Shown here in pieces: positions 2,226 to 24,269 of a DNA stretch of 24,750 nt. A program made the position numbers and the translations under genes. The stretch is taken from the IMG/VR virus record IMGVR_UViG_3300033069_002010. The stretch is one strand, 5' to 3'. Every line of letters begins with the position of its first letter. The stretch's first letter is position 1. Origin of the DNA: a virus (taxonomy: Duplodnaviria; Heunggongvirae; Uroviricota; Caudoviricetes). The notes under the pieces are model-generated. The model made no database searches. It was not told where the DNA came from and saw nothing but the letters and a program-made list of their open reading frames with translations.

Positions 2226-2507
2226 ATGGAAAAACAATTCGGAAAGCTTACGAGGGTCAGAACAGTATCGGACCGGAAGAACCCGTATTTCGACGACGGT
2301 AGGGTGTTTGTGGGATATTTCACCGAATCTCCCCAAATCGGTAGGGGGTTCACTTTTTGGCAAAAGAACGACATTCCGATTTACACCACCGTGGTTGTCG
2401 AGATTATCGACAATTTTACCTTCAGGACCGAAAATACCATTTACCATCTGATTACAGTAGAAGAAGAAAGAGATCTTAAAATAAAAAACATAATCGAGAA
2501 TGAATAA
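2226..2507 (+). CDS. Hypothetical protein, 93 aa, beta-rich, with C-terminal RDLKIKNII motif
   Basis: ATG start, phage-like composition, 8-bp overlap with the next ORF. Confidence 0.75.
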   Translation: MEKQFGKLTRVRTVSDRKNPYFDDGRVFVGYFTESPQIGRGFTFWQKNDIPIYTTVVVEIIDNFTFRTENTIYHLITVEEERDLKIKNIIENE

Positions 2508-2994
2508 CAAGGAAAAACATATGGAACTGCTAGAATTGATATTCCACTACGTCAATTCGACTGAGGAAAAAATATCCTCATCTAAGTCAAGCTTCAGATA
2601 CGAGAAATTAGATAAATCGAATGAGAAAAAGGAAGTGAGATACCAGGATTTGAAAGCGTATAGGTTCGAAATAGTCAAACCCGAAATGAAAATAAAATTC
2701 GATATTTCCATTTTTCGGAAGGAAGGGTTTTTCTCGGACAACCACATCATCGAGATACTACCAAGGGAGAACCGGGATTGGGGATCGAGACATGATGTTA
2801 TCATCATAGACACCCACATTTCGGGATTTCCGAAAAAGATTCTCAGAAAGATATTCGACACTCTTGAGAAAAAGGAGTCTGAATTCTTTCTGAAACAGAA
2901 AGAATCCCAATTGGGAGGATATATCGAGGAAATCCAAAAAGGAATAGATAAGTCGTATTCAAGGGACAACAAGATAGAAAATCTCCTGAAATAA
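2500..2994 (+). CDS. Hypothetical protein, 164 aa, with C-terminal RDNKIENLL motif
   Basis: Coupled to the upstream ORF (ATGAATAA overlap); stop is followed directly by a terminator hairpin. Confidence 0.8.
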   Translation: MNNKEKHMELLELIFHYVNSTEEKISSSKSSFRYEKLDKSNEKKEVRYQDLKAYRFEIVKPEMKIKFDISIFRKEGFFSDNHIIEILPRENRDWGSRHDVIIIDTHISGFPKKILRKIFDTLEKKESEFFLKQKESQLGGYIEEIQKGIDKSYSRDNKIENLLK

Positions 2995-3027
2995 AAAAGA
3001 GAGGAACAAATCCTCTCTCTTTTTTTT
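2993..3027. terminator. Bidirectional intrinsic terminator
   Basis: Stem AGAGAGGA (2998-3005), loop ACAAA, stem TCCTCTCT (3011-3018); T8 tract at 3020-3027 and A-tract at 2993-2997; lies between convergent genes. Confidence 0.8.
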
Positions 3028-3430
3028 ATTTCATTTTTCCAAGTGTCTTAGCCAACTGAAGCTGTCTGTATTTCGACAAATCCCTTTTGCCCAATCCCTG
3101 GACTCCTGGGGTTTCTGGATCCTTGTCCTTTTTCCTAAGAGATGAGAGTTCACCTTCTATGTCGGAGGAGCTGATTTTCTCGCCTTTTTTCTTGTGCATT
3201 TTCCTTCTGAGGGAACCTGGTCTTTTGATGGCGTCGGAAATCCACTTTTTTTCGTGAACCTCTTCCTCATGGGAGGTTTCGTCCTCCATCATGCACATGC
3301 TTGTGAGTTCTTCGGAGGACATGCTTTCGAGTTCCTCGCGGCCCCATCCGCAGTCGCAGAGTTTGCCGATCATTTCCTCGCGTCCCATATCGACGGAACC
3401 GTAGGATTCGAATGTTTTCAGGTGTTTCAT
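3026..3430 (-). CDS. Putative internal head protein: CTS-like N-terminus, acidic segment, basic KKWI..AIK.PG.LR domain
   Basis: 134 aa; starts MKHLKTFESY; acidic first half; basic second half KKWISDAIKRPGSLRRKMHKKKGEKI...LAKTLGKMK. Last gene of a tightly spaced three-gene minus-strand unit (1-nt and 3-nt gaps). Confidence 0.6.
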   Translation of the reverse strand: MKHLKTFESYGSVDMGREEMIGKLCDCGWGREELESMSSEELTSMCMMEDETSHEEEVHEKKWISDAIKRPGSLRRKMHKKKGEKISSSDIEGELSSLRKKDKDPETPGVQGLGKRDLSKYRQLQLAKTLGKMK

Positions 3431-3433
3431 AGT

Positions 3434-4534
3434 CTATTTCTTATTTTTTCTCTTGTAGGCAAACTCCTTATACAAATCCTTTGCCAATCCAGTTCGGTTT
3501 TTAGCCATATTGTGATAGTCATCCTTGGGAAGATCCCTGGTGCTGGGATTTCTCCACTGCGCGTCCGAAGTCCATTTGCTGAACGGGACTATTGATGATT
3601 CGAGTCCAGGAGCCTGGTGCGACGATTCGTGCATCTCCCCTCCCCGGAACTTGGTTCTTTTTCCTCCCTTGAGTTTGGGATCGGTTGTCTTGAACACCGA
3701 CAGTTTCATCTGGTGGTCGTCCTCATATTCGAGGGCAGATTTTTCCTTGAAGAACTTCTGTATGTGTTCGACATTCTTGGGATCGTCGTCGGAGAATCCG
3801 ACCGAAACGCTCTTGACTCCGAGCTTCTTCCCGAAACGGTTGCATTTCTCGATGAACCTGTCAAGCGCCTGTTGTTTTGCCATTTCCGGATTGGCCGCGG
3901 TCGACTGTCCGAATTCCCTTGCGAAAGAGTCGGAGCTGACTCCGTAATAGTCACAGTTGTCAAGATAGTCCTTAATAAGTTCGGTTTCCGAAAGCTTTCC
4001 CTTGGGAATCCTTTCAAGTTCCTCAGACTCATACGGGGAGAACAGGTAAGCGTGTTTCAGGCAGTTGGAATACATCAGGAACTGCTGGTCTTCGGTCAGG
4101 ACCTGGTCCACTATGTACTTGACGGCGGATTTGATGGACTCGGGCTCGTGTCCCCTTGCCGTCACGATTGCGAAAAGAGCCCCTTCGGTCAGGCATTTTA
4201 TGAAAGCGTCCCATGAAGGCCCGAATCTTCCCTGGCTGACAGCATCCATCGTGTCCTCAAGGAATGCCCTATCCCCCCTGGAACCGTAGTCCCGGAATTC
4301 GGAAAAGGCGAAAACCGGATCGTTGTTTCTCAGACGGTAGTTCTCCTTGTCGTTTCTGACAGTGGCGAATTCGGCGGTCGAGACGTCGATCGGGGACCAT
4401 CCGTCACCGACTTTCCGGTCCATGTGGATCACGGTCGGCATGTGGAGTAAATTGTCATCCCAGTCGAATGCGTAATAATGGAGCTTGAAATCCCGTTTTG
4501 CCTCGTTGAAGCTTGAGTATCTTCTTATTTTCAT
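3434..4534 (-). CDS. HAD-superfamily phosphohydrolase with CTS-like N-terminus
   Basis: 366 aa. Motif I YAFDWDDNL (DxD), motif II AIVTARGH, motif IV GFSDDDPKN. Starts MKIRRYSSFNE. Confidence 0.75.
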   Translation of the reverse strand: MKIRRYSSFNEAKRDFKLHYYAFDWDDNLLHMPTVIHMDRKVGDGWSPIDVSTAEFATVRNDKENYRLRNNDPVFAFSEFRDYGSRGDRAFLEDTMDAVSQGRFGPSWDAFIKCLTEGALFAIVTARGHEPESIKSAVKYIVDQVLTEDQQFLMYSNCLKHAYLFSPYESEELERIPKGKLSETELIKDYLDNCDYYGVSSDSFAREFGQSTAANPEMAKQQALDRFIEKCNRFGKKLGVKSVSVGFSDDDPKNVEHIQKFFKEKSALEYEDDHQMKLSVFKTTDPKLKGGKRTKFRGGEMHESSHQAPGLESSIVPFSKWTSDAQWRNPSTRDLPKDDYHNMAKNRTGLAKDLYKEFAYKRKNKK

Positions 4535-4535
4535 T

Positions 4536-4898
4536 TTAGTGTTTGCGGTACTTCATTTTCTTTGTGTTGAAAAATGCAGAGAACGATTCAAGGGCGCCTT
4601 CTTCCTCTCCCATTTCCTCTTCTTCCATTTCCTCTCCGGATTCTTCCTCACCCATTTCCTCTTCGGCTTCCTCTCCCTCATCTCCGAGGTCTGATTCTTC
4701 CTCTCCGAAAGCGGACATTTCCTCATCTCCCATTTCCTCCATATCTTCACGATCTTCGGTTCCAGGTTGGTCCTCGCCGCCTTCGAGCTCGAATTCCTCG
4801 ATTACTTCCCCGTCTTTTAAAGCCTGAACCATAACTTTACCTTCTTCGGATTCGGATATTGTTATTTCGTATCCATGCATTTCAATAGTTGTTTTCAT
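4536..4898 (-). CDS. Highly acidic low-complexity protein (possible prohead core protein or nucleic-acid mimic)
   Basis: 120 aa; short folded-looking N-terminus, EEMGEEE-type repeats, C-terminal LESFSAFFN followed by a basic tail; preceded by TAATATATA. Confidence 0.7.
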   Translation of the reverse strand: MKTTIEMHGYEITISESEEGKVMVQALKDGEVIEEFELEGGEDQPGTEDREDMEEMGDEEMSAFGEEESDLGDEGEEAEEEMGEEESGEEMEEEEMGEEEGALESFSAFFNTKKMKYRKH

Positions 4899-4917
4899 AC
4901 AAATATTTATTTTTTTT

Positions 4918-4926
4918 TATATATTA
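4918..4926 (-). promoter_or_regulatory. Putative phage late-type promoter TAATATATA
   Basis: 19 nt upstream of ATG 4898; the identical 9-mer occurs at 4955, 12623 and 18185. Confidence 0.6.
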
Positions 4927-4954
4927 AAAATCGAATTCCGTTTTTGACATATCC

Positions 4955-4963
4955 TATATATTA
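4955..4963 (-). promoter_or_regulatory. Second TAATATATA copy in the same intergenic gap
   Basis: Exact 9-mer 37 nt from the first copy; the near-palindromic core could alternatively serve clpP on the + strand. Confidence 0.45.
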
Positions 4964-5007
4964 AACTTTTCAGGCGAAAAGGACTAAAATCAAAAAACCA
5001 AAAACAA

Positions 5008-5667
5008 ATGTCAAACGACTTTCTCAAATACGCGACCAAACACCATCGCATTTCATCAACCTATATCGATTCCTACAAAAGGAAAAACTCGACCCATCTG
5101 ATTCTGGACGACTCAGGAGAGGGAATAATGGTCGACATATTCTCAAAACTGATCGACAGCCGGATAATATTCCTTTCCAATGAGATGGAATCCGACATCT
5201 GCAACATAATCAAGGCCCAACTCCTTTATCTGGAACAGATGGATTCCGAAAGGGACATCAAAATCTACATCGACTGTCCAGGAGGATCGGTCTATTCGGG
5301 ATTGGGCCTTCTCGACACCATGGAATACGTCAGTCCCGACATTATGACCATCAACACGGGTTTGGCTGCATCGATGGCTGCCGTTCTTCTGGCATGCGGA
5401 ACCAAGGGAAAGAGAAAATCCCTGAAGAGGGCGAGAACCATGATACACCAGCCCCTTTCGGCCAGTTACGGATACTCACAGGCATCGGATATGGAAATCG
5501 AGGCCAAGGAGGTGAACTCACTGAAAAGGGAACTTTATGAGATACTGTCGGAAAGGACCGGACAGAAATTCGAAAGGATAGAAAAGGATTCGGACAGGGA
5601 CTATTGGATGAACTCAGAGGAGACCCTTAAATACGGACTGATCGACGAGATTGTCAGAAAAAAATAA
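5008..5667 (+). CDS. clpP: ATP-dependent Clp protease proteolytic subunit, phage-encoded, Bacteroidota-type N-terminus
   Basis: 219 aa. RIIFL, IYIDCPGGSV, GLAASMAA (catalytic Ser), MIHQP (His), QASDME (Asp), DRDYWM, YGLIDEI. N-terminal DFLKYATKH resembles the DFRKYATKH extension of Bacteroides ClpP. Confidence 0.95.
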   Translation: MSNDFLKYATKHHRISSTYIDSYKRKNSTHLILDDSGEGIMVDIFSKLIDSRIIFLSNEMESDICNIIKAQLLYLEQMDSERDIKIYIDCPGGSVYSGLGLLDTMEYVSPDIMTINTGLAASMAAVLLACGTKGKRKSLKRARTMIHQPLSASYGYSQASDMEIEAKEVNSLKRELYEILSERTGQKFERIEKDSDRDYWMNSEETLKYGLIDEIVRKK

Positions 5668-5690
5668 ATCCACCTTACGGTGGATTTTTT
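5666..5690. terminator. Bidirectional intrinsic terminator
   Basis: Stem AAATCCACC (5666-5674), loop TTAC (GTAA, a GNRA loop, on the - strand), stem GGTGGATTT (5679-5687) plus T-tract; lies between the convergent clpP and 5689..6345 stops. Confidence 0.85.
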
Positions 5691-6345
5691 ATTTACCCTC
5701 ATCGGGTTTCTTTTTGGGTTTGGGTTCCTGTTTTGGTCGGTCCGCAGGCTTTTTGACATCCTGTTTCTTGGGAGCCGTCTTTTTAGGCTGTTCGGGTTTC
5801 TTGGTTTCCGGTTTCTTGACATCTTTCTTGACATCCGAATTATGGGACTTGTTCGGTTTGGGTTTCCTTGATTTAGACTTTATGTCCTTGACAGTCTCAA
5901 CCTTCAGGGGAGTAGGACTCAAATCCTTAATCAGTTCGGCATCGGTGATGATTGTCCTGCCATCGGCGATGTATTCCGTCTTGGCGGATTCCTTGTCTTT
6001 GGACATTCTCTCTTCCAAATCATTAAATATCGATTCGGAGATCGCTTTTCCAATCTCAACCGTCGTTTCGTCAATCGTGGATTTCAGCTCCAGAAGTTTG
6101 GAAGTCAGATCGGGATAGTTCTTCGAATTTTCCAGAAGATAGTCGATGTAATGCGTGAAACTCGACATTTCTGTTTTTTTATCGACATCAGTCTCAACGG
6201 TTTCAACGGTTTCGGCTGTCGGAAGGTCTCCTGTCGGACCGACTGGAGAAAACAACTCCATTTCAGGTTCGGTTTTTTTGCTTTCCTTTTTGGAAAGTCC
6301 GGTTTTTTCCAGGACAAAAGTCCATATTTTTTTCAAAAAATCCAT
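5689..6345 (-). CDS. Hypothetical protein with amphipathic N-terminal helix and Lys/Pro-rich histone-H1-like tail
   Basis: 218 aa; MDFLKKIWTFVL start; short ETVETVET repeat; last ~65 aa dominated by K/P (KKPETKKPEQPKK...); preceded by ATATATA and followed by a terminator. Confidence 0.75.
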   Translation of the reverse strand: MDFLKKIWTFVLEKTGLSKKESKKTEPEMELFSPVGPTGDLPTAETVETVETDVDKKTEMSSFTHYIDYLLENSKNYPDLTSKLLELKSTIDETTVEIGKAISESIFNDLEERMSKDKESAKTEYIADGRTIITDAELIKDLSPTPLKVETVKDIKSKSRKPKPNKSHNSDVKKDVKKPETKKPEQPKKTAPKKQDVKKPADRPKQEPKPKKKPDEGK

Positions 6346-6358
6346 ATTTCAATTTTTT

Positions 6359-6370
6359 TATATATATATC
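6359..6370 (-). promoter_or_regulatory. Putative late-type promoter GATATATATATA
   Basis: 13 nt upstream of ATG 6345. Confidence 0.5.
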
Positions 6371-6420
6371 AAAGTATTTGGTTCCCCTCCACCAAAAACA
6401 TAAAAGGTAGGACATGTTTT

Positions 6421-6430
6421 CATATATATA
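6421..6430 (+). promoter_or_regulatory. Putative late-type promoter CATATATATA
   Basis: 5 nt upstream of ATG 6436; would drive the Zn-finger ORF, the endonuclease and possibly uvsW. Confidence 0.45.
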
Positions 6431-6435
6431 GGTAT

Positions 6436-6582
6436 ATGAAATGTCAATATAGAAACTGTCAAAATGATTTCAGTGGAAGAAATAATAAGAAATATTGCTG
6501 CATAAAATGTAAAAGAAATGAAGCTAAATATAGAAAAAGAAATAAGATAAAATGCCTAAGAAATTGGAGTGGGAGGAAATAA
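6436..6582 (+). CDS. Small basic Cys-rich (putative Zn-finger) protein, 48 aa
   Basis: 3' part of track ORF 6151..6582, starting at ATG 6436: MKCQYRNC...KKYCCIKC followed by a basic helix; directly after an ATATATA motif; overlaps the next ORF by 31 nt. Confidence 0.55.
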   Translation: MKCQYRNCQNDFSGRNNKKYCCIKCKRNEAKYRKRNKIKCLRNWSGRK

Positions 6583-7448
6583 TAAAAAGATCATCCGATA
6601 TCCATAGTAATAAATATGAATATAGGTTTCAGATCCATAAAAACGGTAGAGATAAAATTTCAATCACATGTCCGACACATGGTGATTTTAATCAATCAAT
6701 AGAAGCGCATTTGAATGGGAGAGGTTGTCCCTCTTGCGCGGGCAATACAAAATATACGAAAGAAAGTCTTAAAATAAAGTTATTTTCAATCTACTCAGAC
6801 AAATATGAATATGATTTAGATGGATTTAAAAACAACGAAAGTATAATAAGGATCAAATGCGACTTACATGGTTGGTTTAAAATGAAGGTGGCTAACCACC
6901 TTCATGGTCAAAAATGTAAAAAATGTTCACATATGGTCTATTCAAATGATGATTTCAAAGAAATTTGTGATAGACTTCATAATGGATATTATGACTATAG
7001 TTTAGTTGATTACAGAAGCTATAAGTCAGTTATTAAAATAATATGCCCTAAACACGGAATTTTTGAGCAAAACGCAAGGACTCACTTTAGAGGACACGGA
7101 TGTCCTCTTTGTAAAGTATCAAAGGCGGAATTGAAAATTTTATCCTTTTTTAAAAGCAGAAATATTGATATTGAAAGACAGAAAAAATTCGACGGTTGTT
7201 TTAACAAGTACAAACTCCCATTCGATTTCTATCTAACTAATCAAAATATTTGCATCGAATATGATGGATATCAACACTTTCATCCAGTTGATTTTTTTGG
7301 TGGGGAAAAAAATCTCATCATACAAAAAAAGAGAGATACTATCAAAGATAGATTCTGTGATGAAAACAATATAAGACTATTTAGAATAAAATATGATGAG
7401 GACATCGATAAAAAATTAGAATCAATATTGAATGAAATTCAAATATGA
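6552..7448 (+). CDS. Putative free-standing homing endonuclease: three Zn-binding repeats plus Vsr/DUF559-like PD-(D/E)XK nuclease
   Basis: 298 aa. Three CxxHG..F......H..G..CxxC repeats (DUF723-like); C-terminal LPFDFYL...ICIEYDGYQHF...KDRFC..NNIRLFRIKY. Markedly AT-rich; overlaps the uvsW start by 17 bp. Confidence 0.8.
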   Translation: MPKKLEWEEIIKRSSDIHSNKYEYRFQIHKNGRDKISITCPTHGDFNQSIEAHLNGRGCPSCAGNTKYTKESLKIKLFSIYSDKYEYDLDGFKNNESIIRIKCDLHGWFKMKVANHLHGQKCKKCSHMVYSNDDFKEICDRLHNGYYDYSLVDYRSYKSVIKIICPKHGIFEQNARTHFRGHGCPLCKVSKAELKILSFFKSRNIDIERQKKFDGCFNKYKLPFDFYLTNQNICIEYDGYQHFHPVDFFGGEKNLIIQKKRDTIKDRFCDENNIRLFRIKYDEDIDKKLESILNEIQI

Positions 7449-9072
7449 CCCAGCTAGTGAAAAATTATTGGTATCAGAGGCATCTAGAATAGAATACCAT
7501 CAGATGAAAATATGGCTGACCAGAAAAATAAAAGGATGGAGGTTTTTACCAGCGGTGAAAATGGGAATATGGAATGGAGATGTATCTCATTTCGACAACG
7601 GGAAGGTGAATTTGGGCCTTTGGAAGGAATGCTGGAAGGCATGCAAGGAGATAGGTGTTCCCTTCAACATGGAAAACAAGGAAGACTTTCCGCTCAACAG
7701 GGAGGTGACCTTGGAATCGGTGACCGAATTCTGCAGGGACTTCTTCAGGCAGTATAAGATAAGGGACAAAAAAACGGGACAGTGGATTCCCTTCATGCCC
7801 TATGATTATCAGATCGAGACCGCCTTCAAAATCCTCAAAAACCGGTATTGCATGGCCGAGGTGGCCACATCGGGAGGAAAATCCCTGGTCATTTCGATAG
7901 TCATGTTCTACACCCTTAAAAACATCAATCCCGACGCGAAGTTCCTGATAATAGTTCCTTCGATAACACTGGTGACCCAGTTCTACGAAAACATCCTCGA
8001 ATACAACTACGGAACCAACTATCTCGAAAAATACGGGGACAAGATCGAATTCAGGAACCATCTTATAGACTCGATACTCGAAGAGGATCCCGACTACAAT
8101 CCCTGCCACATCAAGATGGAGGAAATTATGTCAGACAAGCCAAGAAAATGGACAGGACCATCCCAACCCAACGTGTTTGTCGGATGCTACCAGTCCCTTG
8201 AGAAATATCCGAAGGAATTCTTCCAGCAGTTCCATACTGTGGCATGTGACGAGGCTCACGGGGCCAAGGCCACCACACTTACCTCCATCCTGAAAAGGAC
8301 ATTCGGACACGCCTATAACCGGTTTGGGGTTTCAGGAACCTTTCCCACCGACGAGACACTTGAAATACTTACAATTCAGTCGGTTTTGGGACCAAAGGTG
8401 ACACAGATCGAGGCATCGACCCTTGTCAAGTCCGGAACGATAACACCGATGGAGGTTAAGGCGGTGATACTGAACCACGCGTCGGCGGGGATGAACGAAC
8501 AGCTTCAGCACATCAAAAAAAGCGGAGGAGGAGCCAACGCATACAGACTTGAGAACGAATACATACAACAGTCCAAAAAAAGACTTGAATTCCTAAAGAA
8601 GCTCGTGTCCAAATGTCAGGAAAACACACTCCTTCTGTTCAACACACTGGAATTCGGAACCAAAATTTTCGAGGAGCTGAAATCCGAAATAACCGACAAG
8701 GACTTTTACTACATCGCTGGTGAGATAAACAACAAGAACCGTGAGATAATCAAAAAGGAGATGGAAAAGACCGACGGAAGGGTCAAGGTCCTTGTGGCCT
8801 CATATGGAACTCTGAGCACGGGAGTGTCAATCAATGCCATATTCAACGTGATATTCGCAGATTCGGCCGGAAAATCCGAACAGAAAGTCATACAGTCGAT
8901 CGGAAGGGCTCTCAGAAAACACGACAAGAAAAAAGTGGCCACGATTTTCGACCTGGTCGACGTGTTTGACCCCAAGGAAATGAACAACATACTATACCGA
9001 CACTTTCAGGAAAGGGAAAAATTCTACAAGAACAGGAACTATCCCTATAAGGTTATAAAAATCAATCTATAG
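7432..9072 (+). CDS. uvsW: SF2 DNA/RNA helicase, T4 UvsW-like
   Basis: 546 aa. PYDYQ Q-motif, Walker A EVATSGGKS, IIVPSITLVTQ, DEAH, motif III GVSGT, motif V STGVSI, motif VI QSIGRALR; T4-like end YKVIKINL. Confidence 0.9.
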   Translation: MKFKYDPASEKLLVSEASRIEYHQMKIWLTRKIKGWRFLPAVKMGIWNGDVSHFDNGKVNLGLWKECWKACKEIGVPFNMENKEDFPLNREVTLESVTEFCRDFFRQYKIRDKKTGQWIPFMPYDYQIETAFKILKNRYCMAEVATSGGKSLVISIVMFYTLKNINPDAKFLIIVPSITLVTQFYENILEYNYGTNYLEKYGDKIEFRNHLIDSILEEDPDYNPCHIKMEEIMSDKPRKWTGPSQPNVFVGCYQSLEKYPKEFFQQFHTVACDEAHGAKATTLTSILKRTFGHAYNRFGVSGTFPTDETLEILTIQSVLGPKVTQIEASTLVKSGTITPMEVKAVILNHASAGMNEQLQHIKKSGGGANAYRLENEYIQQSKKRLEFLKKLVSKCQENTLLLFNTLEFGTKIFEELKSEITDKDFYYIAGEINNKNREIIKKEMEKTDGRVKVLVASYGTLSTGVSINAIFNVIFADSAGKSEQKVIQSIGRALRKHDKKKVATIFDLVDVFDPKEMNNILYRHFQEREKFYKNRNYPYKVIKINL

Positions 9073-10653: not shown

Positions 10654-10655
10654 AA

Positions 10656-12602: not shown

Positions 12603-12622
12603 CGATTAAGATCAGTTTATTG

Positions 12623-12631: not shown

Positions 12632-12643
12632 ATAAATTGGTTC

Positions 12644-16104: not shown

Positions 16105-16113
16105 TTTTCTATC

Positions 16114-18162
16114 TTATATTTTTGTGAGTCCCTTCGACTGTAGGGCCAATTCAAATTCGGAATTCGCTTGCTGCTTGACATAGTCGACAAGAACCTGGTA
16201 GTTGCTCTCACCGGTTTGTTTGTCTCCCCCGTCCGAGGTATCCCATCTTCCGACATATGTGTTCGGCTGTACCGCGCTTGAAACTGACCAGTTTATGGAG
16301 ACATTTTGCTGGCTGTACTTTCCGCTGTTCAGAATCTGTCCTCCCAACCAACTGCCGCTCACATAACCAGGAACGGGCGATTCGGCAGCCGGCTGAATTC
16401 CGACGGTCGGTGCCGGAGGTGGTGTCGGAGGCGGTATACTAACCGTTGTGTTTGGAATGGTAGATACGGAAGATTTAGAAGGATGAACCTCACTTGTGTT
16501 TCCAATCGACGGATTTGTGACAGGATCACCGATTACCGGAGTAGAAGTGGGATCGTTATAGGAATACCAATCGTTTCCGGGCCCGTTTATTGAGTAGAAA
16601 GGATCATTGACTAGCGGATTGTAGGTGTATACGGCTTCCGCGTTTTGCAGTGTTGTCCTGTTTACGACCACACTCTGGCTCTGTCCGTTCTGGTTGAGGA
16701 TCGTGGTTGAGACGGTTCCGGATTTGATTGAAAAGGTTGCCGAAATTGATTTCTCAACAAATGACTCCTTAATCCTGGCATATGATCTTCCCCTACCGGT
16801 ATTGAACCTTTGGAATATTTCCTGTGCTCCCAACGGCCTTGCGTTCGTAAGACTGAACGAAAATTTGATTGACGACGGTAGATCGTTAAATGTAAGGGTT
16901 TTACCCAACTCAACCTTGACCGTTTCACAAAGCATGTCACCCGAACAGAAAATCGGTTTTTTCGGATTGCCGATAGTCACATGCCACGGGGCGGAAGGAC
17001 TTCCGCTGAGAGCGTTCAGAACCCCGAGAAGCTTCACCTTGTACTTGCTGACGACATGACCGACGGTCGAGGCGAAAGCCTTTTGGATTTGATCGATAAT
17101 CTGGTTGGTATTGGGAAACTGATCGTTTCTTGGTGGGTTTATCAGAGCATTTATAATCTTTGCTCCTATATCTGATATGGCCTCCACCAAGGCGGAAACG
17201 AATTGGATTATGGATGCGGCTATTGCCCTCAAATCCCCACTGATGAGGTTTTTGATGAACTCACTCCCGCTGTTCTGAAACTTGGTGTTGAACTGGAACA
17301 CCGACTCGGAGGTTCCGAAGGTGAGAGCGTTCTGTATGATATCAAGGTAAACCAAGGAAGGATCCAACCCGTTTATGAATTTCTGCTCATACTCGACGTT
17401 CATGGTGACCGTGATGGTGCATTTCAACCCGGATCCGGCCGTATTCTTGGATACGAGGGATCTCTGTTTGGCCTGTCTGATCAGATTTGGGTTTCCCAAA
17501 GGTGAGTTTCCGATTCCGAAGTCATCCTGAAGACCGAGTTTTTTCAGTATCTCATACTGAATTCCCTCCATGAAACCTGGCATCGGAAGCATATCCATTC
17601 CACCCGCCGCGAAATTGCCAAGCTGGCTTCCCCCAATCAGATCCTTGACGTCACCACCAAGTTCATTGAGTATGCTGGTGAAGCTCGCTTCTGCGTCTGT
17701 CCAGCTCTCACCCCAATCTGCTGATAACCATTCCTGATCCTCGGGAACCCAGGATACCAAAGTCGCCATCGGAACATCCTTCACCGTCGAGAGATCGCTG
17801 TGGACCCCACTCTGAAATCTTCTGGCGACTATAAGTCTGTTGTTGGGGAAGACCCCAACGTTTTTGAGGTAGGCAAAATCTGCGAATGTCAGTTTCATCG
17901 ACGGTATACCACTTGTATACTCGACTATGGAAGCAATACTCACGTCATTGGTGTCATCATTGTGGATAGACTGAGCGTTTGTCCCGATTTTGGGTATCGC
18001 GTCCTTAATCTCAGGATTAGAATTGTTGACCCCAGGGAATGGAATGAACTGATTAGAATTTCCGTCGTTTCCGACTCCGAAAATCGATTTTATACGAAGG
18101 GAATTGATTACCTGATACTGGGAAAGTCTCTGGCTAGGTCCTAAGTTTAACGGGGATGGCAT
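16114..18162 (-). CDS. Putative baseplate/tail-tube initiator (gp48/gp54-like) with Pro-rich linker and extra C-terminal domain
   Basis: 682 aa; first gene of the baseplate run. The region WHVTIGNPKKPIF..GDM.CE.V.VE.G..L.FNDLP..I...F.L..ARP looks like a tube-fold C-terminus; PPPTPPPAP linker. The family call is inference from pattern and synteny. Confidence 0.5.
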   Translation of the reverse strand: MPSPLNLGPSQRLSQYQVINSLRIKSIFGVGNDGNSNQFIPFPGVNNSNPEIKDAIPKIGTNAQSIHNDDTNDVSIASIVEYTSGIPSMKLTFADFAYLKNVGVFPNNRLIVARRFQSGVHSDLSTVKDVPMATLVSWVPEDQEWLSADWGESWTDAEASFTSILNELGGDVKDLIGGSQLGNFAAGGMDMLPMPGFMEGIQYEILKKLGLQDDFGIGNSPLGNPNLIRQAKQRSLVSKNTAGSGLKCTITVTMNVEYEQKFINGLDPSLVYLDIIQNALTFGTSESVFQFNTKFQNSGSEFIKNLISGDLRAIAASIIQFVSALVEAISDIGAKIINALINPPRNDQFPNTNQIIDQIQKAFASTVGHVVSKYKVKLLGVLNALSGSPSAPWHVTIGNPKKPIFCSGDMLCETVKVELGKTLTFNDLPSSIKFSFSLTNARPLGAQEIFQRFNTGRGRSYARIKESFVEKSISATFSIKSGTVSTTILNQNGQSQSVVVNRTTLQNAEAVYTYNPLVNDPFYSINGPGNDWYSYNDPTSTPVIGDPVTNPSIGNTSEVHPSKSSVSTIPNTTVSIPPPTPPPAPTVGIQPAAESPVPGYVSGSWLGGQILNSGKYSQQNVSINWSVSSAVQPNTYVGRWDTSDGGDKQTGESNYQVLVDYVKQQANSEFELALQSKGLTKI

Positions 18163-18184
18163 ATCTAAGATATAAAATTTGATT

Positions 18185-18193
18185 TATATATTA
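18185..18193 (-). promoter_or_regulatory. Putative late-type promoter TAATATATA heading the baseplate operon
   Basis: 22 nt upstream of ATG 18162. Confidence 0.6.
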
Positions 18194-18231
18194 AATATTT
18201 GGTAATCTCTAATAGGTGTTTTCGTCAAAAA

Positions 18232-18624
18232 TCAATAGTCTCTAATAATCTGACTGTTGGAAAATTTAGAAAGATTGCCGAGGACATCGTCCAATACGTC
18301 GGGGTCCTTTCGGAATTCGTTGTAAAAAATGAGAACGTTGAAATTATTCTGCTCTCCGAGGATTTTTCTTATGTTGATGAGCTTCTCTATGGAAAATTCG
18401 CTTTCGAAATCGGGGATGTAATATATATCCTTGTTTTTCTCGATTGCCTGTTGAATCTTCTGGAAGATTATTATCTTCAGATAGGTCTTTTCCTTATCAA
18501 AGGAAATTTCCTCCTCCTCCATTATTTTTTTTATATCTATGATATACTTGTTCCTAATCCTGTTGACCTTTATATACTTGTCCAGTTTTTTCCTTGTCTT
18601 CACATAGACACAAAAGAAATCCAT
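18232..18624 (-). CDS. Hypothetical protein, 130 aa, alpha/beta; possibly a degenerate P-loop kinase-like fold
   Basis: ATG 18624 preferred over GTG 18627. Alternating strand/helix pattern (YIIDIKKI...QAIEKNKDIYYIPD) recalls small nucleotide kinases, but there is no Walker A. Confidence 0.65.
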   Translation of the reverse strand: MDFFCVYVKTRKKLDKYIKVNRIRNKYIIDIKKIMEEEEISFDKEKTYLKIIIFQKIQQAIEKNKDIYYIPDFESEFSIEKLINIRKILGEQNNFNVLIFYNEFRKDPDVLDDVLGNLSKFSNSQIIRDY

Positions 18625-18651
18625 CACTTCTTAAATATTGTTTTTCTACAC

Positions 18652-18659
18652 TATTTATA
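18652..18659 (-). promoter_or_regulatory. T4 late promoter consensus TATAAATA
   Basis: Exact T4 gp55-dependent consensus, 27 nt upstream of ATG 18624, in an intergenic gap. Confidence 0.55.
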
Positions 18660-18677
18660 AAATTAACCCTCTTTCCC

Positions 18678-20492
18678 TCACTCGAATTTTCCTATAATCT
18701 GGTTCTGTTTTATGGTCAACGAAAATCCACTCCCGTTCTCGGATTTTTTCGGCTCGAATTTCGAGTCAAACCCTGCCTTTATGAACTGGTCTTTTGAAAC
18801 AGCCTTTATCTTACCATCAGACGTCTTCAGAAAATAGTCAAAACTCTCGTTGGCGACGTCACCCGCCAATTCGACACCGGATTTGTATTCGACCTCCTTC
18901 CCCGATTTAATATCATCTATCTTGGACTTGAGAATGGTGATAAAGTCATCGGCGAACATTTTCATGACATCGGTGTAGTTCTCGGTTCCGAAATTCTTGG
19001 ACAGAAGATCCCTCCTTGAGGAGAAATAGTTCAACCCCTGTATGTTGGTTATCGAAGGGTGTCCCCCGGAATTGACGGTTATGATGTCATACATCGAAAT
19101 CGTAATCAGTCCCATCATCTGCTTTTCCCTATCGGACCATTTCTCATAAGGCTTGTCCATACACTCCTTCAGGATTCCGATCACGACGGCGGTCTTTGCC
19201 GAAGTCTCGTCATCTAGATTAAGGAACTCCGTGGTGAAATCACCCGACTTTCTGTTCGGCATCCACTTTATGGTCTTGGAATAGAATGCCTTCAAATCGG
19301 CGTAGTTGAATCCGATCGGCTGATAATCTTCCCCGTAATGGGTTCTCTTTTTCGAAATCTCGTCCTCGCTTATCCTTTTGATGTCGGATATCGGAACGTT
19401 GAATTCCTTCAATATGTCCACATACTTGCCCAACATTTCCTTGGTTATGGCCCCAAGATCGATCTTCGACAGGACCTTTTCCTTGAAGGGATTGCAGGAA
19501 ACCTGAATCAGGCCCATAGGGAAAATGGTGCAGACAAAATCGGCTGCGGGATTGTTCTTGAACACAACATACCGGTCGTAAGAACCCGGCTCGAAAACAG
19601 ATCCTATGCCGTATTGCTTTATTATCTTATATGTCTCGTCGAATTCGACATCCTTGCTTCCCACCCTCGACTTAACGTATTTTTCAAGATTGGATTTAAG
19701 AACATCGAGAGTCGCCAATTTTTTAGGGACATTATGCTTTCTTAGAGACTTGTCATATTCGAGGGATATAGCCGTATCCATGTAATGTTTTATGTTCATG
19801 AACATCGATATCAGAGAAGGTGAAGAATCCAAAGTCAGACACTCCAAGAAATTCTTGTTGATGTGCTTTCTCTTCCCGTCAAGACTGGTTCCGCTGATTC
19901 TCTTGTTTTTGAACACGAGAAGAAGCCTGTTGACCACAAATCCCATCATGAAACGGTTTTTCTCACCCGATAGTTTCGGATCCACCGAAAAAACCACATT
20001 CTGAATGTCATCGGGGGTTATCCCGTATTTTAGGAAGTCGGCCGAATCGACGGTCTTGATAAGATCTATGTCCGATTTCATGAAAACGTCTGAAGGGGAT
20101 ATCTCACCCGATATTATCTCGACGTTTGACCTTGAAGGCTTTGCGTAAGCCGCTCCCGAAGGTTCTCCCGTCTGACTGGTGTGGTGATCGGTGGCTATGG
20201 TGAACATGGTCTTGAAATGGGCGAAATCGACAAGAACGGCCATAGAATCGGGTCTTTTCTGTCTTATGGCGTATTCCATCCCACCGTATTGGGTGATGTG
20301 ACAATCAACCATTTTCATTCCGTATCTTTCCAGATAGGATTTCATTGCCAACGCCGAGGTAACACCATCCAGATCTTGGTGAAACCAGATCTCGAAATTG
20401 TTTCCGTGCTCGGCCTTGTGTGAGGCTATCAGTTTGGAGATGTTCCTGAGACCCACTTCCTCATTCAAAAAAGAATTGTATTTCTTTATCAT
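18678..20492 (-). CDS. DHH/DHHA1-family phosphoesterase with CTS-like N-terminus
   Basis: 604 aa from ATG 20492 (the track uses TTG 20498). FHQDLDGVTSA, VLVDFAH, TDHH, SRSN, VDSAD and a C-terminal SGGH. Starts MIKKYNSFLNEE. Confidence 0.85.
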   Translation of the reverse strand: MIKKYNSFLNEEVGLRNISKLIASHKAEHGNNFEIWFHQDLDGVTSALAMKSYLERYGMKMVDCHITQYGGMEYAIRQKRPDSMAVLVDFAHFKTMFTIATDHHTSQTGEPSGAAYAKPSRSNVEIISGEISPSDVFMKSDIDLIKTVDSADFLKYGITPDDIQNVVFSVDPKLSGEKNRFMMGFVVNRLLLVFKNKRISGTSLDGKRKHINKNFLECLTLDSSPSLISMFMNIKHYMDTAISLEYDKSLRKHNVPKKLATLDVLKSNLEKYVKSRVGSKDVEFDETYKIIKQYGIGSVFEPGSYDRYVVFKNNPAADFVCTIFPMGLIQVSCNPFKEKVLSKIDLGAITKEMLGKYVDILKEFNVPISDIKRISEDEISKKRTHYGEDYQPIGFNYADLKAFYSKTIKWMPNRKSGDFTTEFLNLDDETSAKTAVVIGILKECMDKPYEKWSDREKQMMGLITISMYDIITVNSGGHPSITNIQGLNYFSSRRDLLSKNFGTENYTDVMKMFADDFITILKSKIDDIKSGKEVEYKSGVELAGDVANESFDYFLKTSDGKIKAVSKDQFIKAGFDSKFEPKKSENGSGFSLTIKQNQIIGKFE

Positions 20493-20507
20493 GTTCAAAA
20501 AATTATT

Positions 20508-21050
20508 TTATTCCTCGTCAAGGTCAATTTCATTATCGTCATCCTCGTCATCGAAGATATCATCATCAATATGGTCTTCCTCGTCATGTTCAAGTTCACC
20601 TTCATCGTCAAATTCATCCTCGAATTCCTCATCATCATAATCATCATCCTCATCATCGGATTCGAGTTCGCCGCTCTTCATGGCGTCAATCGTGTCCTGG
20701 GTGACATTGTAATCAACCCAACTCTGTATCTGCTCACCCAGATCAAATCCCAAATCCGAAAGATCGTCGAATATGACTTTCATATCGGTGAAATTCGATG
20801 TGGAAAGATATGACTGAAGATTCGGTATAGATTCCCTCATATGCTCAAGGAACATCTGGTAGTCAACCGATATCTTTTCCTCATCACCATCGGGGGTCTC
20901 CACCCAAACGTTGAAATGGTCCACGTCTCCGTGACTGTGCTTCCTGAAATACTCGGTCTCATCCTCGGGACTTCCGAAATCCCATCTGACAACCTTAAAT
21001 TGGGGACTTTCAAATCCCAGATAATCGTTGAATTCTAAAATATGTCTCAT
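20508..21050 (-). CDS. Hypothetical protein with CTS-like start and long Asp/Glu tail ending in Glu-Glu
   Basis: 180 aa; MRHILEFNDY start; last ~50 aa mostly D/E; ends EIDLDEE; 7-nt gap to the amidoligase gene. Confidence 0.8.
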   Translation of the reverse strand: MRHILEFNDYLGFESPQFKVVRWDFGSPEDETEYFRKHSHGDVDHFNVWVETPDGDEEKISVDYQMFLEHMRESIPNLQSYLSTSNFTDMKVIFDDLSDLGFDLGEQIQSWVDYNVTQDTIDAMKSGELESDDEDDDYDDEEFEDEFDDEGELEHDEEDHIDDDIFDDEDDDNEIDLDEE

Positions 21051-21057
21051 ATTTGTC

Positions 21058-22443
21058 TTATTTTTTAAATCCTTTTATGACGCCCAAATCCTTTTTCCCA
21101 TCCCTTTCCTCTTCAAAACTTGTATCGAAGAAGCTGTCTGTTTCCGAAACCACGTTGGTCTCCGAACTTATGTTTGCGTAAGGCCCGAGCTTTCCACCCC
21201 TGAACACCCCACCAATCATATCCCCGTTTAGATAACCGTTCATGAAGAAGCAGTTTGTCATTTGAGTGGCCTCAACATTGCAGCTGAGAATCTTCGAATC
21301 ATTGATGTCACATCCGTGTATCTTGGATTTTATTATCTGGGAATTGGAGACCTGACAATTGACCAGTCCGCAATTCTCGAATATGCCGTCAGACATCACA
21401 CAATTGATGAAGTCAAAATCCTTGATGTTGTGTGTCGATTTTACGTTTGCGTCAATAACCTCTATTTTCTGGGTAGCTGTCACATAGTTTATTATGCAAT
21501 CCTTCAGGGAATCGGTTGAATCTATCAGGACATGCAGCTTGGGGAAAATCTTATCATAGTATGCGTTGACAACGTCATAATTGTAATATTGGTCTATCTG
21601 AAGGGATATTGTCGGGAAATCAACAATAAAGTTGTCGTATTTTGAGAAATTCTTGAAGTTGCTGATGTTGAGATCAAGGTATTTCTCCAACTCGTCAATA
21701 TCCTGGTCGTTGAAACCGGTGTCTATGGAATTGTGGACATCTATGACAAACCTGTCCATGAAATACAATATCTGTCCTATGTTTTTCTCATAGTCCTTAC
21801 CACCGATGTATCGGAACTCCAGTCTCTGCGAATCTTTCGGATTGTTGACATGTAGGAAATTGACCCCGTAGTACTTGTCATCAGGCATCCTTATGTTGTT
21901 TTTGACCACGTCGATCGGAATGTTGTTGAAATCGTATTCCTTGTATGGGATTACCTTTTTGACGGTCTTGGCGTAAACGTTGTTCTTTCTCGAAGGATAA
22001 ACCCTGTAAATCTCTTCCTCATCAAGATTGAGAATAAGCTTGAGCATATTCAGGTCGTTAAGGTCCTTGTCGGCATCACCCAAAAAGGATATGTTGAAAT
22101 GGATTGACGCTTTTTCGGTGGTATATCCGTATTGCTGTATGAATTTCAGGATTTTTATCAGATAAAACTTGGCCTCATAATATGACATCGGCCCTGTAAC
22201 CAATTCCACCATGTTCGAACCTCCAGAAAGATCGGGTTCTATCTTGAAGTTCTGGGAATCTGGCTTGAAATCGGAGTGATATTTCTTGAAACCCCAAACC
22301 TTTACGGGAGCAAGATAAAGATTGAGCATTTCCAATGTCTTGTAATAGGACATTTCCCTCATGAAAAACTCAAATTCAAAGCCCACTTGTGACTTTTTCA
22401 AAATATCATTGCTGTTGATGAACGTTTCCGAATATTTCTTCAT
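21058..22443 (-). CDS. Putative amidoligase (COOH-NH2 ligase, Amidoligase_2-like) with C-terminal pentapeptide-repeat beta-helix
   Basis: 461 aa. GFEFE, KIEPDLS, ELVTGPM, SIHFNIS, KYYGVNF, LEFRYIGG; then about 13 five-residue repeats (FENCG LVNCQ VSNSQ IIKSK IHGCD INDSK ILSCN...). Confidence 0.75.
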   Translation of the reverse strand: MKKYSETFINSNDILKKSQVGFEFEFFMREMSYYKTLEMLNLYLAPVKVWGFKKYHSDFKPDSQNFKIEPDLSGGSNMVELVTGPMSYYEAKFYLIKILKFIQQYGYTTEKASIHFNISFLGDADKDLNDLNMLKLILNLDEEEIYRVYPSRKNNVYAKTVKKVIPYKEYDFNNIPIDVVKNNIRMPDDKYYGVNFLHVNNPKDSQRLEFRYIGGKDYEKNIGQILYFMDRFVIDVHNSIDTGFNDQDIDELEKYLDLNISNFKNFSKYDNFIVDFPTISLQIDQYYNYDVVNAYYDKIFPKLHVLIDSTDSLKDCIINYVTATQKIEVIDANVKSTHNIKDFDFINCVMSDGIFENCGLVNCQVSNSQIIKSKIHGCDINDSKILSCNVEATQMTNCFFMNGYLNGDMIGGVFRGGKLGPYANISSETNVVSETDSFFDTSFEEERDGKKDLGVIKGFKK

Positions 22444-22449
22444 ATTGAC

Positions 22450-22457
22450 TATATATA
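22450..22457 (-). promoter_or_regulatory. Putative late-type promoter TATATATA heading the amidoligase-acidic-DHH unit
   Basis: 6 nt upstream of ATG 22443 in a 25-nt gap. Confidence 0.5.
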
Positions 22458-22468
22458 AAAAATGAAGA

Positions 22469-23047
22469 TCACAATTTGTTATTCAGACCGATTGTTTCTC
22501 CTTTAAGGGAAGAAATATCGACAACAGCACCATAACCTATGAAATTGTCGTAAAATTTCGGATAATCCTTTCCCCAATATACGAAACAACAGGCCATCGG
22601 AGCTCCTGTTCCCGTATCCTCACCATTCTCAAGGAATTTAAGTCTTGTGTCATAGAGGAAACAAACCCCAGTGGCCTTTCCGAAAACACCTTGTTTCCAA
22701 TGGCCTGTGTTGGTGGCGACGGGTATGAGGGCTATTATCTCGGACCCGTATTTCTGGTTCGAAATCATCGCCTTCACCAACCAGTTCTTTATTGTGGTTC
22801 CCCGTGACTTATCCGAACCGTATGGTGGATTGATGTAGATTGTGGGATAGTCCCACTCCTCGGACAGTCCGTCGGTGGGAAGCATGAACTCGGTATCGGC
22901 CCCGACCACCGAATATTGGTTTGAACATGGATCGAGGGATATGGTCCCCCCGAAAAACCTCCTGACCAGATCGGCGTATTTTCTTGGAGTTCCCCATGAT
23001 TGGCTCTTGTTCATAGTCCTGACTTCGGACATCTTATATTCGCTCAT
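22469..23047 (-). CDS. Phage-type DNA N6-adenine methyltransferase (PF05869-like)
   Basis: 192 aa; WGTP, LDPCS, DGLSEEW, catalytic INPPY, IALIPVATNT..W, LKF motifs; no cognate restriction endonuclease nearby. Confidence 0.85.
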   Translation of the reverse strand: MSEYKMSEVRTMNKSQSWGTPRKYADLVRRFFGGTISLDPCSNQYSVVGADTEFMLPTDGLSEEWDYPTIYINPPYGSDKSRGTTIKNWLVKAMISNQKYGSEIIALIPVATNTGHWKQGVFGKATGVCFLYDTRLKFLENGEDTGTGAPMACCFVYWGKDYPKFYDNFIGYGAVVDISSLKGETIGLNNKL

Positions 23048-23051
23048 ACCC

Positions 23052-23059
23052 TATATATC
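23052..23059 (-). promoter_or_regulatory. Putative late-type promoter GATATATA
   Basis: 4 nt upstream of ATG 23047. Confidence 0.4.
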
Positions 23060-23092
23060 GGGGATATTTTTTTTCATTCGGCATTATTTTGA

Positions 23093-23115
23093 TATATTTG
23101 AATTTGGAATATATA
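23093..23115 (+). promoter_or_regulatory. Bacteroidota-type -7 element TATATTTG (23093-23100) followed by AATATATA (23108-23115)
   Basis: Both motifs lie in the divergent gap, 21 nt and 6 nt before ATG 23122. Confidence 0.5.
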
Positions 23116-23121
23116 CCACCA

Positions 23122-24027
23122 ATGAAACTTACATCAGAAATCATATCGGAAAACCTCGACAGGCTGGAAAAATCCAAAAAAGACTTCCCGATTCTCATAC
23201 AATATGAGAACTGCAACGACTTTTACATGAGAATGAGCATCAGACAGGAAGCAAGCCAGTTCAACCTCACCTATTACATAGACTTTATAGACTTCATAAA
23301 AAATTCCGAAAAAAGGGGTCAGCCAGTATTTTACAGGAAAAAAATATCTGTAAAAGAATTTCAGGATACTCTTACCAAGTACGCCTTTGACGAAGACGCA
23401 AGAAAATCCTTTTCGTCAAAGTCAAAAAAATCCTTCCAACATCTTATAAATTCGGACAAGTGGGAGGTGTTTGCCGGACAGCAGGAAACATACAAAAAAA
23501 GAAAGAGAAGATACAACAACAATTTCGAAAATTCGGAGGCCATCATAGCCAATTTCATAATCCAAAACGAAATCGATGTGGACCTGCCGTTCTGGACCCG
23601 GATCTCAAAATGGTATACCGTTCTTCTCCCAGAATCCGAAAATTCCCTCCAAAATGAGATAAGACAAACCAAAGAACTGATAGACCATGTTATGGAAACC
23701 ATGAAATCATCCGAAATTGACTTCAGGAAACTAAACTACACCTATCTGACAAACCAACTCCAGGAAGAGATAAAGAAACAGATGCTCAGAATAGAACTCG
23801 GAGAAAAAATAAGATGTGTCGATCCGTCAAATCTTGAAAAGATAACCCATTCAGCAATATATGACGTTATTGACAAACGGCTGAGCAACGTCACATCCGG
23901 AGGCGGAAACGTCCTGTCCGTCTACATAACAAACGATGATGGAAGCAATATGTGGTATCCATACAGACACTTCGAAACGGTCACCAACATGAGGGATTCA
24001 TTCATCGACAAACTGCTAAACTCATAA
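23122..24027 (+). CDS. Hypothetical protein, 301 aa, with C-terminal small beta-barrel-like domain ending RDSFIDKLL
   Basis: Start revised to ATG 23122 because the track start at 23089 overlaps the promoter motifs. The C-terminal ~75 aa resemble the next ORF. Confidence 0.75.
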   Translation: MKLTSEIISENLDRLEKSKKDFPILIQYENCNDFYMRMSIRQEASQFNLTYYIDFIDFIKNSEKRGQPVFYRKKISVKEFQDTLTKYAFDEDARKSFSSKSKKSFQHLINSDKWEVFAGQQETYKKRKRRYNNNFENSEAIIANFIIQNEIDVDLPFWTRISKWYTVLLPESENSLQNEIRQTKELIDHVMETMKSSEIDFRKLNYTYLTNQLQEEIKKQMLRIELGEKIRCVDPSNLEKITHSAIYDVIDKRLSNVTSGGGNVLSVYITNDDGSNMWYPYRHFETVTNMRDSFIDKLLNS

Positions 24028-24029
24028 CA

Positions 24030-24269
24030 ATGTTGGTGAGATTCACACCAAGAGAAACTCTTACGTCAATTGAAAAATGGCATGTGGCCATCAGATTGAC
24101 CCCTGGAAAAATATATCGGGTTGTATACATGGAATATAAGCTACCAGGTATATCTGATGAATACTATATCATCGAGGATGACACAGGCATCACCCTGCCT
24201 TATCCTAAGGTACATTTTATCCCCATATCCGAAGAGAGGGATTCAAAAATAGATAAGATTTTGGATTAG
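24030..24269 (+). CDS. Small beta-barrel (SH3-like) phage protein, 79 aa, ending RDSKIDKIL
   Basis: ATG 24030 lies 2 nt after the upstream stop; LTPGKIYRV...YYIIEDDTG...YPKVHF pattern. Confidence 0.75.
   Translation: MLVRFTPRETLTSIEKWHVAIRLTPGKIYRVVYMEYKLPGISDEYYIIEDDTGITLPYPKVHFIPISEERDSKIDKILD

Follow-up and report, generated by a model that had tools for sequence, protein, structure and literature searches.

The subject of this analysis is a short C-terminal sequence motif shared by four proteins that are encoded in a 24,750-nucleotide stretch of virus DNA (Caudoviricetes; IMG/VR record IMGVR_UViG_3300033069_002010), referred to below as the window. The window belongs to a single 92,898-bp record whose completeness is estimated at 13%, and a megablast search with the window found no match in the phage collection. 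The runs that hold this DNA are freshwater and aquatic metagenomes, with no RNA among the runs listed. The four genes lie on the + strand in two two-gene operons. In the first operon, p1 (2226-2507; 93 aa in translation, ending ...EEERDLKIKNIIENE) carries the tag core RDLKIKNII at 2469-2495, with R at 2469, followed by ENE and the stop. The start of p2 (2500-2994; 164 aa, ending ...YSRDNKIENLLK) overlaps the p1 stop, and the protein consists of its own alpha/beta body and the core RDNKIENLL (2962-2988, R at 2962), which is followed by K and the stop. The second operon encodes p3 (23122-24027; 301 aa, ending ...NMRDSFIDKLLNS), with the core RDSFIDKLL (23992-24018, R at 23992) followed by NS and the stop, and p4 (24030-24269; 79 aa, ending ...EERDSKIDKILD), with RDSKIDKIL (24237-24263, R at 24237) followed by D and the stop. 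Both genes start with ATG. The ATG at 23122 was taken as the p3 start instead of the TTG at 23089 because the homologues align from residue 1, and p4 starts 2 nt past the p3 stop. Each operon lies downstream of TATATTTG, a word that fits the Bacteroidota-type -7 box (TAnnTTTG) and is a putative promoter; it was read at 2214-2221, 4 nt before the p1 start, and at 23093-23100 before p3, in agreement with the first-pass annotation of the window. A terminator-like hairpin with a T-run (2998-3028, +; 8-pair stem, T8), which is a consensus match only, stands at the end of the p1-p2 operon.

The first-pass annotation, made from the letters alone, had described the four protein ends and the position of each R, and the translations reproduced them exactly. 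A scan of the window open reading frames (ORFs) likewise agreed that no minus-strand protein in the window carries the motif. To extend this, ORFs were called by a simple greedy script that accepts only ATG, by which starts may be misplaced but C-termini cannot. On the 92,898-bp contig, the pattern R[DE]..[IL]..[ILVM][ILVM] gave 11 matches, ten of which fall within 10 residues of a C-terminus, against an expectation of 0.11 (at most 2 in 2000 shuffles); when shuffling was restricted to the last 20 residues of each protein, 0.15 C-terminal matches were expected. The single internal match, against 1.7 expected, is at chance level. A slightly wider pattern was found in 14 of the 120 proteins of the contig, and the expectations ranged from 0.1 to 0.4 across patterns. 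One of these carriers (181 aa, 35533-36078) is encoded directly downstream of a 625-aa SPFH/Band-7 gene (33586-35463, +).

Five related huge-phage records of 106-465 kb (G1-G5), which were reached in IMG/VR with a p3 profile built from a 13-sequence subset of its family, were read whole. The wide motif was found at the C-terminus of 34 proteins in G1 (98% complete, 531 ORFs; 1.08 expected), 15 in G2 (0.50 expected), 21 in G3 (0.28), 5 in G4 (0.21), and 3 in G5 (0.12), and internal matches in these records were also at chance. A position matrix derived from two genomes was applied to the remaining four, and vice versa; with a threshold of at least 12 bits and the match ending in the last 0-4 residues, it picked out 36 of 641 and 44 of 753 proteins, whereas the internal rate predicts 0.26 and 0.21. 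This is a 140- to 210-fold enrichment at C-termini, and across all tests the enrichment was 30- to 200-fold in six genomes that differ in GC content from 25% to 40%. In total, about 119 of the 1,394 ORFs of the phage and its five relatives, or about one in twelve, carry the tag, and they fall into 68 sequence families. The shared C-terminal motif is thus confirmed by the comparison with internal positions and shuffled controls, and it extends through the genome and the clade, well beyond the four window proteins. No description of the motif was found in the full-text literature searched, and single-protein scans of IMG/VR with p3 and with p2 returned no relatives.

The carriers are small, with a median length of 92 aa compared with 185 aa for all proteins. 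Their consensus is F(-7)..[IL](-4).E.h-R-[DEN]-x-K-[IL]-[DE]-x-[IL]-[LI], most commonly followed by one trailing residue (range 0-4). The first position after R is D, E, or N, with Q in 7 of 78 tags, and positions 7-8 are I or L, with F in 5-7 of 78. The terminal residue varies and is polar in most carriers (K, E, D, S, N, G). A minority form that ends in L-[GSD]-I-COOH was seen in three unrelated families, and both endings are present in one genome, so that there is no lineage switch to make use of. Homologues of carriers are nearly all carriers themselves or have a near variant. Between orthologues the tag is 54% identical and the body 53%; the idea that the tag is better conserved than the body was rejected on these values, and orthologues retain the pattern although its x positions change. 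As the first-pass annotation had claimed, the motif is an amphipathic C-terminal helix; it spans about 14-17 residues and is helical in two confident AlphaFold2 (AF2) models of unrelated folds, the SH3-like fold of p3 and a leucine-rich repeat (LRR)-like fold. Membrane-targeting helices of the MinD/FtsA type are net basic and have a broad hydrophobic face. Such a role was rejected, as acidic and basic positions are balanced in the tag (two each), hydrophobic positions number just three or four, and no long hydrophobic stretch was found in the carriers. When a profile of 80 tags was compared with all PDB sequences, nothing significant was found (best E 0.76); the look-alikes, the uL30 C-terminus NREDQINNLL and the end of the PCNA inhibitor TIP, were dismissed for this reason.

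The bodies to which the motif is attached were then compared. The AF2 model of p3 (predicted local distance difference test score, pLDDT, 93) consists of a helical N-domain (residues 1-221), a predicted SH3-like barrel (229-286), and a terminal helix (287-300) that contains the tag core and has a pLDDT of 78, dropping to 60 at the final residue. Structural alignment of the barrel with VIA-align gave a Z score of 7.3 to Lyn SH3 (root mean square deviation, rmsd, 1.9 A over 55 aligned residues) and Z 5.8-7 to about 50 more SH3, Tudor, and KOW chains, with aligned lengths of 50-60 residues and rmsd of about 2 A. Foldseek with the p3 model returned PetP, the MSL3 chromo-barrel, and CPH, and ESM Atlas viral clusters of 78-79 aa matched p3 residues 223-300 with template modelling (TM) scores of 0.68-0.76. 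All searches with the whole p3 model (Foldseek against PDB and AFDB, VIA-align, and Atlas) matched the SH3-like part only. The models thus place the p3 C-domain and p4, which consists of the barrel and the terminal helix only, among five-stranded, partly open SH3-like barrels of about 60 residues, and the Z scores under 8 denote a shared fold, not ancestry. Pfam gave little for these proteins; DUF6501 matched p4 with 19.1 bits, below its gathering threshold of 23.8, and PF22275 had one sub-threshold match in the genome. The p3 N-domain (residues 1-220, 23122-23780) is conserved and helical and could be assigned to no family or fold by these searches; a weak Pfam match to the DnaG helicase-binding domain (E 0.002) covers residues 174-257. 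The p3 gene is always near Dam/D12 methyltransferase, Hc1-like, and AAA genes.

The p3 C-domain and p4 are homologous even when the tag is removed. The tag-less hidden Markov model (HMM) of the p3 C-domain supports this homology at E values of about 1e-12 to 1e-17 (p4, 4.5e-13), and it recruits p4 and 22 small proteins in three genomes, or 30 in six. The p3 family comprises 87 representative clusters of 22-58% identity, and the tail is kept in almost all of them; 51 of the 87 have the wide motif, and most others have R...L..L variants, including R-x-x-x-L-x-x-L-G-I-COOH. The relatives of p4 are near-identical only, and one with 86% identity retains the tag. In this SH3-like family of 26-30 members, which makes up about a quarter of the carriers, the motif is the last helix of the domain itself and not an appended label. 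The motif probably originated in this family or is displayed there most readily.

Other carriers are different. The p1 body, a predicted beta-barrel of about residues 3-80 (ESM Atlas model, predicted TM score, pTM, 0.70), has structural neighbours that end before the tag. hhalign aligned only its last 36 residues with the SH3-plus-helix family, at a weak probability of 29%, so that p1 is possibly related to that family over this segment. DUF6957 matched p1 with 17.8 bits, below the cut-off of 27 and over the last 38 positions of the profile only. A p1 orthologue in G1 (107 aa) retains R-E-I-N-I-E-T-I-L. No fold match was found for p2 (ESM Atlas pTM 0.72, best TM 0.41), no family was found for it in Pfam or PHROG, and its hhalign probability to the SH3 family is 1.7%; relatives of 76-77% identity have the last 14 residues identical. 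Pairwise BLAST of the window bodies gave nothing below E 0.06. Among 64 tag-less bodies outside the SH3-like family, none is closer to the SH3 profile than 374 untagged controls. When the four window proteins and 30 further carriers were searched against Pfam and PHROGs, nothing was above threshold except an Api92-like ferredoxin domain (PF18406) in one carrier, in which the tag lies past the end of the domain. Six carriers are LRR-like solenoids (AF2 pLDDT 95) that end in a 20-residue helix (130-149), the second half of which holds the tag. The earlier view that the bodies look unrelated therefore holds for p2, the LRR-like carriers, and most others, whereas p3 and p4 share a domain and p1 shows a weak resemblance; the four window proteins are not homologues of one domain.

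The clade also has an N-terminal tag, M-K/R-H/Y-L-K-x-F-E, which was re-derived with a regular expression and found in 78 proteins. The two tags avoid each other. A single protein carries both, whereas 6.8 are expected; on this overlap and its C-terminal position, the motif was not assigned to the T4-type capsid targeting sequences. Co-directional gene blocks that contain both tags number 3 against 21.3 +/- 3.2 expected (0 of 2000 shuffles), and same-strand neighbours both with the C-terminal tag (31, 7.4 expected) or both with the N-terminal tag (21, 3.7 expected) are in excess. In an array at 428-442 kb of G1, about twenty minus-strand genes have the C-terminal tag, and the interspersed plus-strand genes are N-tagged. 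The LRR-like paralogues of G3 either have the N-terminal tag and terminate in ...GYTYI, or begin without the first dozen residues and carry the C-terminal tag. That a single body bears one tag or the other is the best indication that the peptide is a modular label and not a by-product of the fold. The paralogue family has about 25 members in one 183-kb record, with the repeat LTSLxGCPxxVGGxFxCxxN, at 3423-5842, 19961-20524, and about 18 more loci (e.g. 58357-60736, 65284-67609, 71616-72964, and 87358-89095), and shows three C-terminal fates, namely the C-terminal tag, the module ending ...GYTYI, and fusion to longer proteins. The link of the motif to the host-type promoter, which the first-pass annotation had drawn from the two window operons, is not general; TAnnTTTG lies within 80 nt upstream of 15% of tagged and 15% of untagged small genes.

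The reading that we favour, with about even confidence, is that the C-terminal helix is a class label read in trans. The tag would mark one separately transcribed class of mostly small proteins for a single conserved reader, and the N-terminal tag M-K-[HY]-L-K-x-F-E would mark a different, non-overlapping class. We infer that such a reader exists and contacts, in trans, the helix face formed by R / I / I-L / L. The most likely concrete reader would be the clade's own Clp machinery, consisting of ClpP, a ClpA/C-like unfoldase with an IGF/VGF loop, and ClpS, and the tag would then serve as a degron or a hand-over signal by which the class is kept short-lived. Within the share of the class label, Clp as the reader is put forward only tentatively. 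The full version, in which a two-label sorting code sends late proteins to the head by the N-terminal tag and hands about 30-50 small accessory proteins per genome by the C-terminal helix to the phage Clp machine, which would time their removal, is doubtful as a whole.

A degron reading is plausible given the gene content. That the phage encodes ClpP, as the first-pass annotation had stated, was borne out, as the product of 5008-5667 (+) matches PF00574 over its full length with 228.9 bits; this gene is context, not part of the tag. Orthologues of this ClpP are present in G1-G4, and G3 has two paralogues (16311-17015, +, and 155678-156346, +; E 1.5e-43 and 1.6e-108 to the window ClpP). A class-I Clp ATPase with the ClpP-docking GIGF/GVGF loop was found in G1, G3, and G4. 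It is intact in G3 (137112-139214, +; 700 aa, D1 and D2) and split by an intein in G1 (120909-122081, -) and G4 (19879-21114, -), where the C-terminal gene begins with an intein C-half (...GLLSHN followed by T) and then runs on within the D2 AAA module, with an AAA_2 profile match from position 16; no gene for the N-terminal half was located in either genome. ClpS (PF02617, 59-63 bits) is encoded in G1 (261559-261756, +) and G2 (188432-188638, -). ClpP, ClpX, ClpA, and ClpS have been described in jumbo phages, with substrates not known (Iyer et al. 2021, PMC7824862). In G1, a GreA/GreB-type transcript-cleavage factor (123857-124327, -; both Pfam domains, 76-82 bits) is encoded amid small C-tagged genes, immediately upstream of the gene for the Clp ATPase.

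Several findings weigh against a label read in trans, and some of them against Clp in particular. The intact unfoldase of G3 has no N-domain, the part used by adaptors and ClpS, and the phage ClpS may instead work with host ClpA. Since Clp genes occur throughout the clade, there is no contrast between presence and absence with which the tag could be compared. Known C-degrons of ClpX and ClpA are unstructured tails that rely on a free carboxylate and on two or three non-polar residues at the very end. The tag was not assigned to this class (ssrA-like C-motif 1, with conserved non-polar, LAA-like last residues, or MuA-like C-motif 2, with basic, RRKKAI-like ones), as it is helical, has a variable and mostly polar last residue, and is followed by 0-4 trailing residues. 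Searches for candidate readers by family did not find a beta clamp, a gp45 clamp, or MecA, and TPR_12 was sub-threshold in G3 only. As the p3 family was the route to all six genomes, these represent one clade and not independent samples. The remaining points come from the proteins themselves. In the AF2 models the tag has a pLDDT of 78-91, whereas a free tail typically scores low. Each of the 30 SH3-like family members has the helix at a fixed distance past the last strand (F-x6-R), and Y247, F284, and R291 of p3 (Y29, F63, and R70 of p4) are invariant in 55 p3-family sequences; this joint invariance of R and two aromatic residues of the barrel agrees with a structural role within the molecule. 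A two-copy fold prediction of p4 with the SH3-family alignment scored 0.01 and is evidence for neither side.

These points in part make up the case for the best-surviving alternative, a purely structural capping or terminal helix, inherited in the SH3-like family and arisen independently or copied elsewhere as a stable helix end in AT-rich genomes, and read by nothing. Besides the confident helix, its integral position in all 30 SH3-family members, and the invariant triad, it is favoured by the LRR-like carriers, where the tag extends the C-cap helix of the solenoid, and p1 may share the last hairpin and helix of the SH3 family. However, the same polar residues (R, D/E/N, K, D/E) recur on at least 60 unrelated bodies at 0-4 residues from the stop, which a capping helix does not require, and internal positions, where helices abound, show no enrichment of the pattern. 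A structural helix also leaves the exclusion of the N-terminal tag, the segregation into blocks, and the either/or choice of the LRR-like proteins unexplained. We consider it possible but unlikely.

The mutual exclusion with the N-terminal tag would also be expected of two alternative loading signals, and a helix that docks on the capsid, the scaffold, or another assembly surface, as encapsulin cargo does, would account for a short C-terminal peptide on diverse cargo. About a third of the carriers further have E at -2 after I/L at -4, which resembles the L/I-x-E sites of T4-type prohead proteases; this feature is absent in p2 and p3. The carriers are encoded in blocks separate from those of the N-tagged genes, which are presumably late, and in many cases they run against the structural genes, and the tag sequence is unlike encapsulin peptides. 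A second virion- or assembly-loading signal is accordingly improbable. The hydrophobic positions of the helix (-4, 0, +4, and +7/+8) have a heptad-like spacing with R in a core position, and carriers are clustered and often translationally coupled, so that they might pair or bundle through the helix, the two proteins of a two-gene operon among them. This self- or hetero-association is very unlikely, as the helix has only two to four turns and pairing would be promiscuous with 30-50 carriers per genome sharing one helix.

The [DENQ]-x-x-[IL]-x-x-h-h spacing of the tag at the extreme C-terminus equals that of the PCNA-interacting peptide (PIP) box, which reads Q-x-x-[ILM]-x-x-[FY]-[FY] and in its bacterial form QL[SD]LF, and p3 is encoded among replication and DNA-modification genes. 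Docking on a sliding clamp or another replication hub would follow from this likeness, but the spacing alone agrees; position 1 is D/E/N, positions 7-8 are I/L, the aromatic pair is absent, and the tag was not counted as a PIP box. The carriers are small ORFans without DNA-enzyme domains (19 of 20 checked have no Pfam family), and the family-B DNA polymerase of the clade has a different, T4/RB69-like tail, ...SVVMDIFGGNGF. The clamp families PF00712 and PF09116 were not found in the 98%-complete G1, where a divergent clamp could escape. Taken together, clamp docking is highly unlikely. One family collected with a relaxed pattern was the C-terminal piece of a family-B DNA polymerase; its T4-like tail, ...MDIFGGNGF, differs from the tag, and it was removed as a false positive. 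Just beyond the window, the contig encodes a 327-aa thumb part of a family-B polymerase (91579-92562, +) that ends ...KRLSVVMDIFGGNGF, a T4/RB69-like clamp-binding tail. A 41- to 43-aa ORF upstream of this polymerase piece is kept in G1, G3, and G4; in G3 it is fused to a 641-aa form, so that the polymerase, too, may be encoded in pieces.

A signal in the nucleic acid itself that sits at the 3' end of genes (as a terminator, regulatory site, or A-rich leader of the next gene) and happens to be translated alike could be suggested from the A/T-rich codons and the next gene close behind many carriers, but is scarcely credible, because synonymous positions vary freely, the codons differ among the four window copies, the motif is retained across 25-40% GC, and it occurs also at operon ends and before convergent genes. 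Arg is encoded by AGA, AGG, CGA, or CGT, Ile by ATA, ATT, or ATC, and Leu by TTA, CTA, CTT, TTG, or CTC, and codon pairs that differ among the four window copies are CTC CTG, ATA ATC, CTG CTA, and ATT TTG. The conservation is therefore in the peptide and not in the DNA.

Elsewhere in the window, an HNH homing-endonuclease-like gene (6552-7448, +; phrog_559, E 1e-65) overlaps by 17 nt the start of a DNA helicase gene (7432-9072, +), and this stretch is AT-rich, with a GC content of 0.33-0.38 compared with about 0.45 around it.

Huge phages have hundreds of small genes without recognisable function. A label that is carried by 6-9% of these, is exclusive of a second label, and is tied to transcription units sorts such ORFans from sequence alone, and it offers an experimental handle, as one peptide can be fused, deleted, or used as bait. 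If the phage Clp machinery reads the tag, the carriers would be the first substrate class, and the tag the first degron, for the ClpP, Clp ATPase, and ClpS of jumbo phages (PMC7824862). If the two-label code holds together with Clp, the virus would encode both a degron system and the protease that serves it. If another hub reads the tag, that hub would be a central node of the infection programme in a clade of 0.2-0.7-Mb freshwater phages.

The motif resembles several known systems in part. Small SH3-like and chromo-barrel proteins with a C-terminal helix (MSL3, PetP, and Sso7d-type proteins) share the architecture of the p3 C-domain and p4; the likeness is one of fold and not of function, and covers about a quarter of the carriers. 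In T4, several unrelated proteins share one hub through C-terminal clamp tails. PIP boxes and these T4/RB69 tails (gp43, gp33, and gp55) occupy the same extreme C-terminal site with the same 1-4-7-8 spacing; the present tag differs in having neither the Q nor the aromatic pair, the polymerase tail of the clade is different, and the carriers are not DNA enzymes. Encapsulin cargo-loading peptides are also short C-terminal tags on diverse cargo that are read by one HK97-fold partner, whereas here the sequences are not alike and the carriers are not co-transcribed with structural genes. The degrons and hand-over peptides of AAA+ proteases (ssrA for ClpXP and ClpAP, the MuA C-terminus, and SspB XB) likewise are portable C-terminal peptides that bring unrelated proteins to one machine; the conserved part of the present tag is instead a helix with R, D/E, and K, and its last residue is variable and polar. 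The capsid targeting sequence of T4 internal proteins and the N-terminal tag of the clade are N-terminal, and that of T4 is cleaved at L/I-x-E, in contrast to the C-terminal, helical tag on another gene class. Like them, however, the tag is a short terminal peptide that is found on many unrelated proteins, about one in ten, and defines a class.

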